A stretch of DNA of 64,000 nucleotides from Promethearchaeota archaeon (GTDB lineage Archaea > Asgardarchaeota > Lokiarchaeia > Sigyniarchaeales > SOKP01): assembly GCA_016839705.1 (NCBI GenBank), contig JAEOTR010000019.1:1-64000 (forward strand), written 5' to 3'. Positions within the stretch are counted from its first letter, which is position 1, and every line of letters begins with the position of its first letter. Below, piece after piece: positions 8,444 through 16,856 of this stretch. The notes beneath the pieces were generated by a model, which was not told the DNA's origin, ran no database searches, and saw nothing but the letters and a program-made list of their open reading frames with translations. A program made the position numbers and the translations under genes.

Positions 8444-10231
8444 ATGTATTTAGATGTTTTGCGAGAAGCTCCAATCTTACCTTTCTCGAATTTTGTATCA
8501 AGAGGTGATATTCCTGATAAAATCGATATCGCTAGACCAAGAAGCTATATTGATCGAGAGGTTTATCGCTTGGTTCGTCAAACTGCTAGAGATAAATCAT
8601 CGCGATTAATTCCAATTCTGGGATCAGCGGGAACTGGGAAAACTCATGCATACCACTCTTTTAAAGATAAGGAAAGAGAGAATGAGAAAAAATTAGAGCA
8701 AGCTAAAGATGATCAGGAGATCGAAATCGGAAAATTAGAAGATTTTAATTGGTCAATTATATATATCCCCAGCCCTCCAGCAAGTATACGGGTATTACTT
8801 CATGTTTATACATGTATAATTGAAGAAATGGGTGCAGAATTACTTGATATTGTTTCGGAGAAATTAGTGAAAAAATGGGGAGGAGATAAGAAGGGATTAT
8901 TCCAAAAACCTAAGCTTGATGAAGTAATTCAAAGAGGAATCAGAGAATTTCCGGGAGTTTTTGCAGATTGTGTGAAAGCATTAGTAACTTATCAACTTGA
9001 CAAAAATATGAAGGCGTTAGCAGAAAGATGGCTTCTCGGTGAAGATTTAGATGATGAAGAACTAAATGAATTGGGTATAAATTCAGTTGTAGAGGATGAT
9101 GACGTATGTCTTGCGCTAATTAAAATCATTACTGAGAATTTAGATACAGTTCTTATCTTATACTTTGACGAATTAGAAAGCCCATATAGAATGTTAGGTG
9201 AAGCTGCCGAGCGTAAATTTCTGGAGATTTTAAAGCGCCTTTATAATGAAGTCAAGGGATTAGTCATCACCATTGCGGTTTTAAAAGAAATTTGGCCTAG
9301 AATTATTGAGATAGCTGATGCACCTCTACGTTCTCGAATGGAGCCTGAACAAGAATTAAAGCCGTTTAGTCTTAACGATCTTAAAATCTACTTTTCGAAA
9401 TCAATGGAAACCTTTTGGGAAGATAACAATTTAAATCCTCCATTATATCCATTATTTCCGTTGAATGAAAAATTAATTGAGATGATTTTTGAAAAAACTC
9501 AAGGGAATCCCAGGAACTCCATTAAGTTGTGTCGAAGATTTATTGATAAAATAGTTATGGAAGAAATGACTGTTGATGAACTTTTAGAAGTTGGAGCGGA
9601 TATTGTGGCGACAGCTAAACCGCAATCTCAAGTTGAGGAGGAAGTGATTGATTTTTCAAAACCCAGAGAGGTTATTAAAAAAACAATCGAAGACATTTTA
9701 GCAGAAGAAGAATATTCTATAGATGTAAATCCCCAATCTGTTGCTGGTGCTACATTGAAATGTATCAATATGATAGGTGAGGAAAAAGGTAAACAATATC
9801 AAACTCAGATGGAATTTAAGTTTATGCTTGGTAAAAGATCTCAAACTTTAGCTGCGTTAATCAAAGCAGAAGGTAAAAAATGGGGTTTAGAGATTCCATC
9901 TATTAAAACTTTCGATAGAAGTGCAGGAGTCGCAGGGTATTATGCTGCTAAACGCCTGAAAGATGCAATTGATCAAAAAGCGATTGATGAAGCTTTATTA
10001 ATCGTACCTACAGGCAGTAGTGGAGCAAAATTTGAAAGTATTTTGCAAAATAATGCAAATATTCATAAAATTGAATTGGATAATGAAGTAGGAGAAGAAT
10101 TAATCAAGAACGCATTGAGTTATCCAACAAAAAAAGGGTGGGAAATAGCAACAGTCATTTTTGGGGCTATTGGAGAATACAAACCACCTGTGATTGAAGA
10201 GACTCCCCCTGATGAGGATCTAGGAGAATAA
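8444..10231 (+). CDS. AAA+/P-loop NTPase (Cdc6/BrxD-like core) with extra C-terminal alpha/beta domain
   Basis: Walker A GSAGTGKT, Walker B ILYFDELE, LRSR Arg finger, GNPR sensor-2; possible ATT start at 8411. Confidence 0.75.
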   Translation: MYLDVLREAPILPFSNFVSRGDIPDKIDIARPRSYIDREVYRLVRQTARDKSSRLIPILGSAGTGKTHAYHSFKDKERENEKKLEQAKDDQEIEIGKLEDFNWSIIYIPSPPASIRVLLHVYTCIIEEMGAELLDIVSEKLVKKWGGDKKGLFQKPKLDEVIQRGIREFPGVFADCVKALVTYQLDKNMKALAERWLLGEDLDDEELNELGINSVVEDDDVCLALIKIITENLDTVLILYFDELESPYRMLGEAAERKFLEILKRLYNEVKGLVITIAVLKEIWPRIIEIADAPLRSRMEPEQELKPFSLNDLKIYFSKSMETFWEDNNLNPPLYPLFPLNEKLIEMIFEKTQGNPRNSIKLCRRFIDKIVMEEMTVDELLEVGADIVATAKPQSQVEEEVIDFSKPREVIKKTIEDILAEEEYSIDVNPQSVAGATLKCINMIGEEKGKQYQTQMEFKFMLGKRSQTLAALIKAEGKKWGLEIPSIKTFDRSAGVAGYYAAKRLKDAIDQKAIDEALLIVPTGSSGAKFESILQNNANIHKIELDNEVGEELIKNALSYPTKKGWEIATVIFGAIGEYKPPVIEETPPDEDLGE

Positions 10232-10232
10232 C

Positions 10233-11156
10233 TTATATATTATTTAAATTTTCTTTTATCTTATTATTTAAATCCTCTAAGTCTTTTGCAAGGCGGGTTG
10301 CTCTTTGGGAATTATTTTTAAAATTCATTAACTCACTAGTTAATTCGTCCTCTTCCAAACTGTTTGAAATTTCGATTAATCTGTCAAGAGGATCACTTAA
10401 TAAATCATATAAATATAATTTATTTCCCTCTAGTTCACTTGCTATTTTTTCAATTTCTTTATTTAGATTAACACGCTCTTTTAGGAAATCAGGGAAATTT
10501 CCAACATGTTCACCTTTATTCTGTAGAAAAGAACGAATTTCTTCTTCTTGTATGAGCACTGCTAATTCTGAAGCATTCAGAAAACTTTTTTTAGCTTTCT
10601 TATATTCTTTGTTTTTTAAAAATTCTTCAGCGATTTTTACCTCATCAGCGATTTTTTCTGGGATTTCTTCACCTAGATCAATCAGTTCTCTTGCTTCTTG
10701 GAGTTGGTTGTCATCGAGCATCTTCTTAGTTCTTTCATTCAATATTTCCTTAATAATTTTTGGTTCTTGCAATTTTTGAACTAAGCTTAATATCGAATTT
10801 AGGCTAGTTTTGAGGATTTCGGTCATCTTTTGCTTATCGTTTGAAAAACCTTGAATAACTTTGGTTTCAATATTGTCAAAAATACTCTTTAAAGAGATAA
10901 GATCTTCTCCTTCCTGTAAGATGAAACTTAGGTAGAGATTATCTTTATTGATTGATTGCGCATCAACTTTATTTGAATAAAAACGATTCTCATCTTTTCG
11001 AATAGTTACATCAGAATATCCTTTTTTTGCATGCTTTTCAGAAAATTCTTTCAATACCATGGTCGGTATCTTATCATCTTGTTTTAGATAATAATCAGCT
11101 AAAATATTTGGTCCAAATGACTGATCAATTTCATATAAGATTATTGCTCGGGGCAT
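10233..11156 (-). CDS. uDENN/longin-like N-terminal domain protein with helical C-terminus
   Basis: N-terminal IILYEIDQSFGPNI matches the hhhxxFDxxxGP start of uDENN/NPRL2-type longin domains; TPR-like helices follow. Confidence 0.55.
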   Translation of the reverse strand: MPRAIILYEIDQSFGPNILADYYLKQDDKIPTMVLKEFSEKHAKKGYSDVTIRKDENRFYSNKVDAQSINKDNLYLSFILQEGEDLISLKSIFDNIETKVIQGFSNDKQKMTEILKTSLNSILSLVQKLQEPKIIKEILNERTKKMLDDNQLQEARELIDLGEEIPEKIADEVKIAEEFLKNKEYKKAKKSFLNASELAVLIQEEEIRSFLQNKGEHVGNFPDFLKERVNLNKEIEKIASELEGNKLYLYDLLSDPLDRLIEISNSLEEDELTSELMNFKNNSQRATRLAKDLEDLNNKIKENLNNI

Positions 11157-13160: not shown

Positions 13161-14822
13161 TTGGAAGCAGCATTAATCCTTAGTCGTTTTGACCCGCTGT
13201 ACGGTCCAACAATGGTTTTAAAAGCACCTAAGTCATTAGAAGGTGAAATTCTGAGTAAAATTCCGTCCCTTATGGATATTCCTACTCAAGGAATATATAT
13301 GCATATTTTTGGAGAATATAAAACTGCAAATTTGTTTTTCAAACTTATGAGTCCTTTTGCTAGAGGTGGATATGAGAGCTTTTTACTTTCTTTAGTAACC
13401 GAATCAAGTATAAATCTAACTTTAATGCTTGCAAATGAGCTTCTCGCGGGATTTGCTCAATATATCATTAAACTTGATGATGCCTATAAAGCATTCGATC
13501 ATGAACCAAAAGAGTTTAAAGCTGATCCTGATAAATTACAGGAAATTAAAAGCTTCTTTTATTCCTATTTTGAATCTATTAAACCAGCAATTAAGACATT
13601 AGCTATGGCTGAGCATCGTTATCAAGCACTTTTTAAAGCTGCAAGGGATGCAATATTTATAATAAATCGAGATACCGGAATAATTATTGATGCAAATATA
13701 CAAGCCGAAAAGCTTGTGGAAAAAACAAGAGATGAAATTGTCGGTCTTGAAGCTTTGAAACTTGAATTGTTTGATGAGGGATTAGTTGATCCAAATATGG
13801 TAAAGCATTTAATTGATCAACCACCCCCAATTATTTCAAGAATAAAAGAATCAAAAGGAACTCATTTGTATCTAGAAGTAACTGTGAACGAAATCCAGTT
13901 AGCGGATCAATATTTTACTCAATACATGTTTCATGATATAACTGACATTCATGTAGTCGAAGATAAACTTAAAGAACAAGTTAAAAAAATTGATATTTTA
14001 AATAAAATCATAAGCGTGGCTAATCAGGCTAACAATTTAAATGAATTATTGAAGAAGATTCGCGATAGCTTTATTAACTTATTTGAACTTAAAGCTTGTG
14101 CTATATTTTTAATTGATAAAGCTCAACATATAGCAAAAATAAAGAAACATAAAGGTTTCCCTTCATATTTTATCCTAGAAAATAGTGAATTAGATGTGAA
14201 TAAAAATCCTTACGATATCGTATTCACAAAGGGAGTAGCACTCATCAATGACAATTTCCCTGAATTTATAAGAGAATTTTTCCCAGAAATAGAAACATCT
14301 TCTACTGCAGTTATCCCGCTATTTTCGAAATTTGAAATAATAGGCTCTATTAATATGATTTTTCGAGATATGAAATCACTTTTACCGGAAGAGATGGAAC
14401 TTATCATTACGATAGGGTTAGAATTAGGGACAGCTATCGAAAGAATGCAAAATAAAGAAGAACTACGACAAAGTGAAATAAAAAGTAACATTTTATTCGA
14501 GCACATCCCATTCTCGATTTTCAAAATTTCAAAGCAGGGAATATTATTAGAGATCAAATTAAATAAAAAAATTAAGGCAATTATAGGACAAATGTTTACA
14601 TCGAATAATTTTATAGGTGAACATATAAATAAGTTTCTACCACCAGAAACAGCAGAAGTAGCTCAAGAAAAGATAGAACAGGCTCTTGAAGACAATGAAT
14701 CTAAAGAAATGAAAATCAATTTATCAATAAATAACAACCAAATAATTTTTCAATCAAACATAGTTCCATTAGGAGATAAAGAAGTTCTAGTATTTTTGCA
14801 GAATTTAACGAGAACTTGGTAA
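13161..14822 (+). CDS. uDENN/longin-like + PAS + GAF + PAS sensor protein without kinase domain
   Basis: N-term LILSRFDPLYGP; PAS RYQALFKAARDAIFII..FHDITD; GAF ..IPLFSKFEIIGSI..LGTAIER; PAS ILFEHIPFSIF..FLQNLT then stop. Confidence 0.75.
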   Translation: MEAALILSRFDPLYGPTMVLKAPKSLEGEILSKIPSLMDIPTQGIYMHIFGEYKTANLFFKLMSPFARGGYESFLLSLVTESSINLTLMLANELLAGFAQYIIKLDDAYKAFDHEPKEFKADPDKLQEIKSFFYSYFESIKPAIKTLAMAEHRYQALFKAARDAIFIINRDTGIIIDANIQAEKLVEKTRDEIVGLEALKLELFDEGLVDPNMVKHLIDQPPPIISRIKESKGTHLYLEVTVNEIQLADQYFTQYMFHDITDIHVVEDKLKEQVKKIDILNKIISVANQANNLNELLKKIRDSFINLFELKACAIFLIDKAQHIAKIKKHKGFPSYFILENSELDVNKNPYDIVFTKGVALINDNFPEFIREFFPEIETSSTAVIPLFSKFEIIGSINMIFRDMKSLLPEEMELIITIGLELGTAIERMQNKEELRQSEIKSNILFEHIPFSIFKISKQGILLEIKLNKKIKAIIGQMFTSNNFIGEHINKFLPPETAEVAQEKIEQALEDNESKEMKINLSINNNQIIFQSNIVPLGDKEVLVFLQNLTRTW

Positions 14823-14854
14823 GATTCTTCTCAATTTATTTTAGTTAAATGAAG

Positions 14855-15913
14855 TTAATTTCGTTGAATACTAAGAGATTTTAACATCCTGCTGATTTTC
14901 ACGCTTTTATTTTGAAAATCAAGAGCAAGAGAATCATCTCCTAATTCAAGGCATAAATTGCTGATATTTTCAAAAAGTGAAACTGCTGCTTCAAATTCTC
15001 CTCCTTCTAAAGCTTTTTGCGCTTCATCCATCAAATTTTCTCTCTCAAGTAAAGGTTTTAATAATGGTGAGACTTTTGTATCCATATCTAATAGATCTGC
15101 TATTATACGGATCATTTTTGGACGATTATTGGGATCTATTGCTATGAATCCATAGGTTTTATTACTCATTAATCTTTCAATGTCCTCAATTTTCATTGCG
15201 TTAGGTAAATCTTGCTTATTGGCAATTACAGCGAAGCGAGCATAAGGTACTGCTTTATTTACTAATTCAACAAAAAATCGACTTTTTTCGAGGTTCTCCA
15301 ATGTTGAATCAGTCATTAGGAGAACTGCGTCACTTCCCCGAATGAATTTTTCCCATAGAAAATCGAATTGATCCTGCCCTGCAAAATCCCAAAGAAAGAA
15401 GCTTAATTTGCCAATTTTAATGGTGGCGACCTCACCTGTTATTGTAGGAATATGTTGCATAGGGATTTCTTCTGATTTTATTAATCTTGTGGTAGTAGTT
15501 TTCCCCACCCCAGAAAATCCCACTATAGAGATTTTAGGTTTTAGATTCCTATGAATCGTATCTACAATTGGATCCAAAACCTCACCTATTATCTCAAATC
15601 CATCTTTTGTAAATTCTTCTCCGTAAAATTCAATAAATTCTTTTTTGAATTTTTTCAGTTGGGGTTCTACGTCTTTAAACTCATCACCCAAACCTGTTAC
15701 GAAAAGTAACACTAAATTAGATCTCTCATCAGTTATGTATGAGAGTTTGTATTCAAAAAACTCATATGTTCCCGTTTCGGGTCCAAATTTAGAAAGAGCT
15801 ACTTTCTTAACCTTTTGATATACATTTGAAAAAATAGAAACATCTAAACCCTTAGCAAAACTTCTCTGATAAGCCAATTTGTCATTTAAAACTATAAAGA
15901 CTTGTCGCAACAT
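14855..15913 (-). CDS. Longin-domain Arf-like small GTPase with C-terminal helical hairpin
   Basis: About 125-aa longin-like N-terminus; GFSGVGKTT, PTI, WDFAGQ, NKQD. Confidence 0.85.
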   Translation of the reverse strand: MLRQVFIVLNDKLAYQRSFAKGLDVSIFSNVYQKVKKVALSKFGPETGTYEFFEYKLSYITDERSNLVLLFVTGLGDEFKDVEPQLKKFKKEFIEFYGEEFTKDGFEIIGEVLDPIVDTIHRNLKPKISIVGFSGVGKTTTTRLIKSEEIPMQHIPTITGEVATIKIGKLSFFLWDFAGQDQFDFLWEKFIRGSDAVLLMTDSTLENLEKSRFFVELVNKAVPYARFAVIANKQDLPNAMKIEDIERLMSNKTYGFIAIDPNNRPKMIRIIADLLDMDTKVSPLLKPLLERENLMDEAQKALEGGEFEAAVSLFENISNLCLELGDDSLALDFQNKSVKISRMLKSLSIQRN

Positions 15914-15950
15914 GTTTAGAATTTTATATTATTATTATCTTCGTATAAAA

Positions 15951-16856
15951 TTATTGATTTAAATCCTTCTTTAAATCATCTAATATCTTAATCATATCTT
16001 CTTTTTCTAATGATTCAGAATAAAGCAAGATATATTTAAAATCTGAATTAACGTCATTTAATCTTTCAATTAATAGATGAAATAATTTGGGACCTAAATC
16101 TACAACGCTTACTTGTCCTATGAGGACTTCAGGGGATTTACTCTTATTATAAATTTCTTCGTATAAATAATATAGGATATTTAGATCAAAATCACTTGAA
16201 ATTTCTTGTATGATAAGATAATCATCCGGATTAGTTACAAATAAGCTTGTTTTCGACAGATTTCCTAATTTAGCTTTGATTTTCTCTTTTAGTACTGAAG
16301 AATTTTCAGAGAAATCACTTATCGTGTTTGAAATCGCATTATAGGTAGTATATATTAAATTTGGATGTAAACTTGTAAAATAGATCGGGATTTCATCAGG
16401 AAGCTCTAATTGTTTTATTATTTGTCTTCTTATTAAGGAAAGTAGACTACCTATTTTTTTTTTAATCACTAGATCGATTTTATGTAGAAATAATATTATT
16501 TTTGCATTAAAATCATGTTTCTTATTAATTTCATAAATTTTCCTAACATCATCAATTATATCTTGAGAATCGGATATCCACGTAGGATAATCAAATACAT
16601 AAATTATAGCACTTGTGTCCCCAAATGCTAATACTTGCTTTTGCTCATCATGTAAAATAATTGGTAGTGATTGACCAGGAGCATCAATCAAACTAACCTT
16701 TGAGTTCATGAAGTTGTGAACTGAATATTTTATTCCGATCGTCGCTTCAAGAGGAAAAAGAATTAAGTCATTCGGGTCTTCTCCTTCAAAAATAACCTTT
16801 TTAATTGTAGTTTTTCCCATCTCAGGAGGACCTATTATTGTTATTTTATCTGCCAT
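15951..16856 (-). CDS. Rag/Gtr1-family small GTPase with roadblock-like C-terminus
   Basis: GPPEMGKTTIKKVIF, EATI, DAPGQ, IIYVFD, HKID (Rag-type G4), YFTSL. Confidence 0.82.
   Translation of the reverse strand: MADKITIIGPPEMGKTTIKKVIFEGEDPNDLILFPLEATIGIKYSVHNFMNSKVSLIDAPGQSLPIILHDEQKQVLAFGDTSAIIYVFDYPTWISDSQDIIDDVRKIYEINKKHDFNAKIILFLHKIDLVIKKKIGSLLSLIRRQIIKQLELPDEIPIYFTSLHPNLIYTTYNAISNTISDFSENSSVLKEKIKAKLGNLSKTSLFVTNPDDYLIIQEISSDFDLNILYYLYEEIYNKSKSPEVLIGQVSVVDLGPKLFHLLIERLNDVNSDFKYILLYSESLEKEDMIKILDDLKKDLNQ

Follow-up and report, generated by a model that had tools for sequence, protein, structure and literature searches.

In eukaryotes, longin domains with GTPase-activating protein (GAP) function occur in FLCN-FNIP2, which acts on RagC/D, in the NPRL2-NPRL3 pair of GATOR1, which acts on RagA/B, and in SMCR8-C9orf72, which acts on Arf. 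GAP longins are marked by a GP motif before strand β2 and by an arginine finger, and the GP motif is missing from longins without GAP function (PMC12290439). In SMCR8 (R147), FLCN (R164) and Avl9-type GAPs, the finger lies in the β4-β5 loop. For Asgard archaea, Liu et al. (10.1101/2020.10.19.343400) describe fusions of NPRL2-like longins with domains of two-component signalling, and GAP activity has been proposed for Asgard longins with a GP motif and an arginine finger, with the choice between an ArfR and a Rag partner left as a question (PMC12290439). The genome of MK-D1 encodes one operon pair of Rag-like GTPases as well as fusions of longin or roadblock domains to GTPases; as a rule, its GTPase genes do not share operons with longin genes, and the matching of GAPs to GTPases is hard (Tran et al., PMC10933270). 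Here, we describe a three-gene cassette from a 64,000-nucleotide stretch of a Promethearchaeota genome (contig JAEOTR010000019.1, positions 1 to 64,000; hereafter the window), in which the gene for a longin fused to PAS and GAF domains stands beside those for a Rag-like GTPase and an Arf-like GTPase. The cassette is real and non-random, and it is built from known Asgard parts. We consider it very probable that its three genes are functionally linked in some way.

The three genes and their products

The sensor gene (13161..14822, plus strand; 553 residues from a TTG start) converges across a gap of 32 bp on the gene for the Arf-like GTPase (14855..15913, minus strand; 352 residues), which lies in tandem with that for the Rag/Gtr-like GTPase (15951..16856, minus strand; 301 residues), 37 bp away. 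These open reading frames (ORFs), all recognized by Pfam, have the coordinates and gaps given in a first-pass annotation of the window. No transmembrane helix is predicted in any of the three proteins. Their named homologs come from Asgard metagenome-assembled genomes, mostly labelled Promethearchaeota or Lokiarchaeota, with Ca. Lokiarchaeum sp. GC14_75 at 74%. At the sensor/Arf junction (14822-14855 in the window and the orthologous loci), roughly half of the loci have the two convergent genes either exactly end to end or with an 18-bp overlap.

Residues 1-150 of the sensor have no Pfam match. A longin profile search yielded 319 relatives, 129 of which were aligned for AlphaFold2 (AF2) modelling and for motif counts. 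With this alignment, the N-terminal domain alone (residues 1-146; 13161..13598, plus strand) was modelled at a predicted local distance difference test (pLDDT) score of 92.6 and with the longin topology β-β-α-β-β-β-α-α; a shallower alignment gave a poor model. In VIA-align, the model matches FLCN (6nzd_H; Z 14.0, root-mean-square deviation 2.4 over 135) and NPRL2 (8fw5_B; Z 12.6, 2.8 over 131), whereas the longins of TRAPP, adaptin, DENND1A and Mon1-Ccz1 reach Z-scores of at most 10. Foldseek likewise ranks GATOR1 chains first (best E-value 3.5e-6), and the Atlas matches comprise Asgard clusters together with NPR2, SMCR8 and Avl9. The fold is therefore that of an FLCN/NPRL2-type longin. Since sequence profiles of the domain found no solved relative and the Pfam family Folliculin matched weakly (four of the 129 members, best E-value 0.0028), we give no residue-level alignment to FLCN. 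A search with the fold of the whole sensor returned matches to GAF, PAS and phytochrome proteins only; these matches are explained by shared folds and are no basis for identifying it as a phytochrome.

Two motifs stand out in this domain. The GP motif (Gly15-Pro16; 13203..13208, plus strand) forms the β1-β2 turn at the start of β2 and is found in all 56 orthologs, with the glycine and the proline each kept in 123 of the 129 family members. Arg68 (13362..13364, plus strand), within the sequence FARGG, lies in the β4-β5 loop between model strands 53-63 and 71-81 and is conserved in 56 of 56 orthologs and in 124 of the 129. By loop position and conservation, it is a candidate counterpart of FLCN R164, from which we infer a catalytic role. 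Together, Arg68 and the GP motif point to a GAP rather than to a guanine nucleotide exchange factor (GEF), and by fold and motifs the domain is a candidate longin GAP. We place an interpretation as a GEF/DENN protein below that as a GAP. The first-pass annotation does not mention Arg68.

The remainder of the sensor, residues 150-553, consists of a PAS domain at about residues 153-259 (13617..13937; Pfam PAS 153-251), a GAF domain at about 291-428 (14031..14444; Pfam GAF 294-428) and a second PAS domain at about 451-550 (14511..14810; Pfam PAS 465-550), all on the plus strand, with long linker helices at residues 123-161 and 261-289. Pfam and fold thus agree with the architecture in the first-pass annotation, in which the longin is the only non-sensory part. 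That annotation had also called the N-terminal domain 'longin/uDENN': the longin stands by its fold, and the uDENN amounts to the longin itself, because cDENN and dDENN domains are absent. The sensor is not a DENN-module protein. It carries no kinase, cyclase or helix-turn-helix output domain; neither HisKA nor HATPase was found and the protein ends after PAS2, hence it is no two-component histidine kinase. It is soluble, with a maximum hydropathy of 1.48. Among the orthologs, PAS1 is its best-conserved domain (mean column identity 0.83) and Cys313 of the GAF domain is invariant; PAS2 is missing in some relatives. We identified no motif for a chromophore or a cofactor.

The Rag-like protein matches Gtr1_RagA (PF04670; E-value 3.4e-21, 76.2 bits at a cut-off of 22) and retains motifs G1-G5 with the switch II glutamine (GPPEMGKT, T39, DAPGQ, HKID as G4, TS as G5). 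The histidine, lysine and aspartate of HKID are invariant in 17 aligned homologs, in line with the Rag type first assigned to it. Its profile can be aligned to Gtr1 and RagA along most of the protein (E-value about 1e-20, with 3.4e-21 for Gtr1; RagA over profile positions 1-281) and matches the Loki Rag structure 8YL2 (E-value 9e-14). The alignment with RagA and Gtr1 reaches into the C-terminal domain, which makes the proposed roadblock-like tail plausible; an Atlas roadblock match of 0.84 has the standing of a lead.

In the Arf-like protein, an N-terminal domain (residues 1-122) is followed by the G domain and a C-terminal helical hairpin. The G domain (Arf, PF00025; E-value 2.5e-18) has intact motifs (GFSGVGKT, PT157, WDFAGQ, NKQD), among them the Arf-type marks NKQD and the interswitch tryptophan, and Arf1 is its closest relative among solved structures (E-value 1.2e-20). 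As the Arf family has been divided into ArfR and Asgard ArfL (10.1101/2024.02.28.582541), we use the label 'Arf-like' only. An N-terminal amphipathic membrane helix of the Arf kind is absent, the G domain being preceded by the 122-residue globular domain. From its sequence pattern, this domain is probably a longin without GP motif or arginine loop; searches of PDB, Pfam and the Atlas gave nothing significant for it, and its profile did not match that of the sensor longin, so that of the annotated 'longin-fused Arf-like GTPase' the Arf G domain is confirmed and the longin stays probable.

We also predicted the complex of the sensor longin with both GTPases and GTP in three runs with controls. 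The runs scored 0.52, 0.01 and 0.46, giving a complex score of 0.46 against 0.00 for the best control, and replacing the Arf chain likewise reduced the score to 0.00. The runs share at least 37% of contacts, with partner pLDDT of at least 79. In calibration, 58 of 80 solved and 2 of 110 mismatched pairs reached the mark; only 7 of the 80 solved pairs, and both mismatches, did so at scores of 0.60 or below. The score may in part reflect similarity to solved FLCN/SMCR8 complexes, and the output contains no interface. With these bounds, the prediction hints at the Arf-like protein as the docking partner of the longin.

Linkage of the three genes in related genomes

Synteny of the trio holds throughout the genus. 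Taken by itself it is uninformative here, because the whole surrounding 15-kb block is equally conserved, and we rejected it as evidence for a unit. More can be learned from losses. Among 54 genomes of the genus, 35 have all three genes adjacent (one of these, G068, with damaged 3' ends), 14 have none, three stop at contig ends and two, G022 and G013, are partial; in G013, a sensor stub of 99 residues is all that is left. None of the 54 has kept the orthologous pair of GTPases while lacking the sensor. In eight genomes (G011, G012, G014, G020, G043, G054, G056 and G057), the empty site is assembled and the upstream transglutaminase gene is kept. On a tree of flanking markers, the trio changed at least five times, counting the G013 stub, with G020 as a sixth case. 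Joint loss of the trio in at least five lineages is supportive of a unit, not proof. A contig scan anchored on a flanking gene recovered two loci only, and the orthologous trio was not found in 16 searched genomes of other families, many of them incomplete.

Furthermore, divergent paralogous trios occur in six other gene contexts (L113/L146/L147, L117, L149/L152, L151, L090 and G133), the last of them in another genus. Sequence identity spans 40-57% in the longin, 49-56% in the Arf-like and 39-51% in the Rag-like protein. The GTPase gene order is swapped in L160, and all three genes are co-directional in L090. The sensors range from 385 to 1137 residues and vary in PAS/GAF content: those of L113/L146/L147 (528, 772 and 1137 residues) have PAS domains only, that of L117 has 647 residues, that of L151 is a longin-PAS-GAF protein, and the most divergent ones align in the longin only. 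The trio-linked longins form a single clade (FastTree support 0.77), and no longin outside it lies beside this GTPase pair. Of the other genes in the host genome, only 3.6% adjoin a GTPase gene. In that the three genes were lost together and recur in other, unrelated settings, their linkage goes beyond background synteny, and the conserved linkage in relatives on which the first-pass proposal depended is borne out.

Several further features of these loci and of the wider longin family are worth recording. Local duplications of one GTPase gene, Arf-like or Rag-like, or of both together are frequent beside a sensor gene present once (L021, L026, L034, L036, L054, L058, L071, L076, L082 and L087). 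In the wider family, 41 of 149 representatives have a small GTPase fused directly to the longin. Long fusions of 830-1140 residues combine a longin of this family with a small GTPase (L193:3-3350 on G000 contig C60; L136-L141), with kinase motifs present as well in representatives; L193:3-3350, the copy from the host genome, has lost the loop arginine. Another ORF (L195:1198-2679 on G000 contig C70; 493 residues) unites in a single polypeptide a GP/ARG longin region with a weak Pfam Folliculin match, a small-GTPase domain and a tail that resembles roadblock. A second cluster of the genus places a PAS-PAS histidine kinase of 711 residues beside tandem Rag-like GTPases of about 437 and 512 residues, often with further flanking kinases (L093:4800-9805, L095:5440-10443, L097, L100, L101 and L102; partial in L098 and L099); judging by its gene content, it appears to be another sensor-to-Rag link. 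At 8444-11156 of the window, an AAA-type ATPase gene, 82-94% conserved in the genus, converges on a gene for a 307-residue protein that is genus-restricted among the relatives searched and weakly resembles the N- and C-terminal parts of the Arf-like protein, without a G domain.

Proposed mechanism and alternatives

We favor, at about even odds, a reading of the cassette as a sensor-gated GAP with the two GTPases as its targets. The Rag-like and Arf-like genes are probably co-transcribed, and their products would probably assemble via their roadblock and longin domains. The sensor longin, by its fold and motifs, would act as a GAP of the FLCN/NPRL2/SMCR8 kind and insert Arg68 into a GTPase active site. 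It would most likely dock on the Arf-like protein, with either the G domain as its substrate or the N-terminal longin as a second longin; in the latter case, the Rag-like protein could be the substrate. Since the SMCR8 longin needs a partner longin, the N-terminal domain of the Arf-like protein or a sensor dimer would supply one. A ligand or the redox state of the PAS/GAF domains would shift the helical linkers and thereby gate the GAP, as in one-component sensors. We offer the most specific version tentatively, as possible rather than probable: a ligand-gated one-component GAP, whose PAS/GAF-controlled arginine-finger longin pairs with the Arf-like longin and turns off a Rag-Arf heterodimer.

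Several observations weigh against a sensor-gated GAP. In the usual convergent layout the sensor cannot be co-transcribed with the GTPase pair, the neighboring genes are syntenic too, and a single deletion can remove adjacent genes, for which reason joint loss falls short of proof. The pairing is also not strict: in G022, the sensor is accompanied by only half of an Arf gene and Rag is missing, and L091 and L092 are Rag-Arf pairs that lack this sensor. In G092 (98% complete) and G111, the sensor is truncated behind the GAF domain, its arginine is intact, and this query found no Rag homolog. The GP and arginine motifs occur family-wide, extending to longin-PAS-kinase proteins and to further longins of the host genome without an adjacent GTPase, and therefore do not name the substrate; in some trio longins, GS or GA replaces GP. 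The SMCR8 longin alone has no GAP activity, and the second longin in our cassette is a putative one. Finally, one of the three complex runs scored only 0.01. On the sensors of G092 and G111 (L191:242-1579 and L192:183-1523), we note that both are open and near-identical and have no ATG, GTG or TTG start near the N-terminus, which suggests an unusual start codon or early decay.

Of the alternatives, the three genes could form a functional cassette in which the longin serves as a non-catalytic platform, an effector or an exchange factor, with Arg68 used for binding. Longin and roadblock dimers are mainly GEFs or platforms (PMC10933270), the arginine occurs across the family whatever the partner, and linkage data and complex prediction cannot tell binding from catalysis. 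We nevertheless regard this as unlikely: its GP motif is one that non-GAP longins lack, and the fold matches are led by FLCN and NPRL2, ahead of DENND1A, Mon1-Ccz1 and TRAPP. Alternatively, the longin could be a constitutive GAP, with PAS and GAF domains that merely dimerize it into a symmetric longin pair or localize it and sense no ligand. The linker helices would suit dimerization, and both the free variation of sensory domains among the trios and the lack of an identified cofactor motif fit this idea. Sensors typically swap input domains on a constant output, however, so that such exchange is itself sensor-like, and the conservation of PAS1 and the invariant Cys313 also speak against a constitutive GAP, which we judge to be distinctly unlikely. 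Least probable, and in our view quite remote, is that the genes are incidental neighbors, juxtaposed in an ancestor, perhaps when a longin-GTPase-PAS fusion gene split, and since then inherited and duplicated together, while the sensor acts on other targets. The syntenic block, the 61 GTPase-like ORFs of the host genome, the sensors without an intact pair in G092, G111 and G022, and the related longin-GTPase-PAS-kinase fusions speak for it. Against it, two opposed transcription units have been lost jointly and repeatedly, loss of the sensor alone was never seen, and the trio has been kept through relocation, inversion and a swap of gene order at 40-55% identity.

For the sensor-gated GAP, the first-pass claim that sensors feed into a eukaryote-like GTPase regulator thus gains from the FLCN/NPRL2-type longin, its GP motif and Arg68, and the linkage. 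Binding of the sensor to the GTPases finds weak support in the Arf-dependent complex score, against which stands the run that scored 0.01. The analogy to nutrient sensing upstream of TORC1 found no support; Liu et al. (10.1101/2020.10.19.343400) report no mTOR kinase-domain homolog in Asgard archaea.

Comparison with described systems

The individual parts of the cassette have been published (Liu 2020; Tran 2024; PMC12290439). Of their pairing in this trio, we found no account in the literature searched. For the partner question of Asgard longin GAPs, the cassette offers one regulator, with a residue that may be catalytic, and two possible clients. Because all three proteins are small and soluble, a pre-eukaryotic origin of longin GAP catalysis becomes testable in a three-protein assay. 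If the most specific version of the mechanism is true, the cassette would be a three-protein prokaryotic forerunner of FLCN/GATOR1/C9orf72-type regulation, with longin GAP catalysis in archaea. It would also reveal how sensory domains of the prokaryotic kind became coupled to GTPases that resemble those of eukaryotes. The cassette is a candidate for a signal-controlled GTPase off-switch that predates eukaryotes.

With FLCN-FNIP2, GATOR1 and SMCR8-C9orf72, the cassette shares the longin fold, the GP motif, the β4-β5 arginine and candidate clients of the Rag and Arf types. Unlike these complexes, it lacks DENN domains, Ragulator and a lysosome, no second GAP subunit was identified, its input comes from fused PAS/GAF domains, its identity to FLCN/NPRL2 is 13% and its GAP role is predicted. 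Like the fusions of Liu et al. (10.1101/2020.10.19.343400), it joins a GAP-type longin to prokaryotic signalling domains in an Asgard archaeon; it differs from them in having no kinase and a fixed Rag-Arf pair, and the accessible part of that work gives neither a GTPase partner nor an arginine finger. Its longin carries both motifs of the longins described from Heimdallarchaeia and of similar proteins (PMC12290439), for which neither a sensory fusion nor a genomic partner is given; the cassette has the former and candidates for the latter. Finally, it resembles the MK-D1 pair (PMC10933270) and the Loki Rags 8YL2 and 9M28 in that adjacent Asgard GTPase genes encode roadblock or longin domains predicted to heterodimerize. 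By contrast to the Rag-like pair of MK-D1, however, it combines a Rag-like with an Arf-like GTPase, and it is an exception to the general rule found there that GTPase genes are not in operons with longins.

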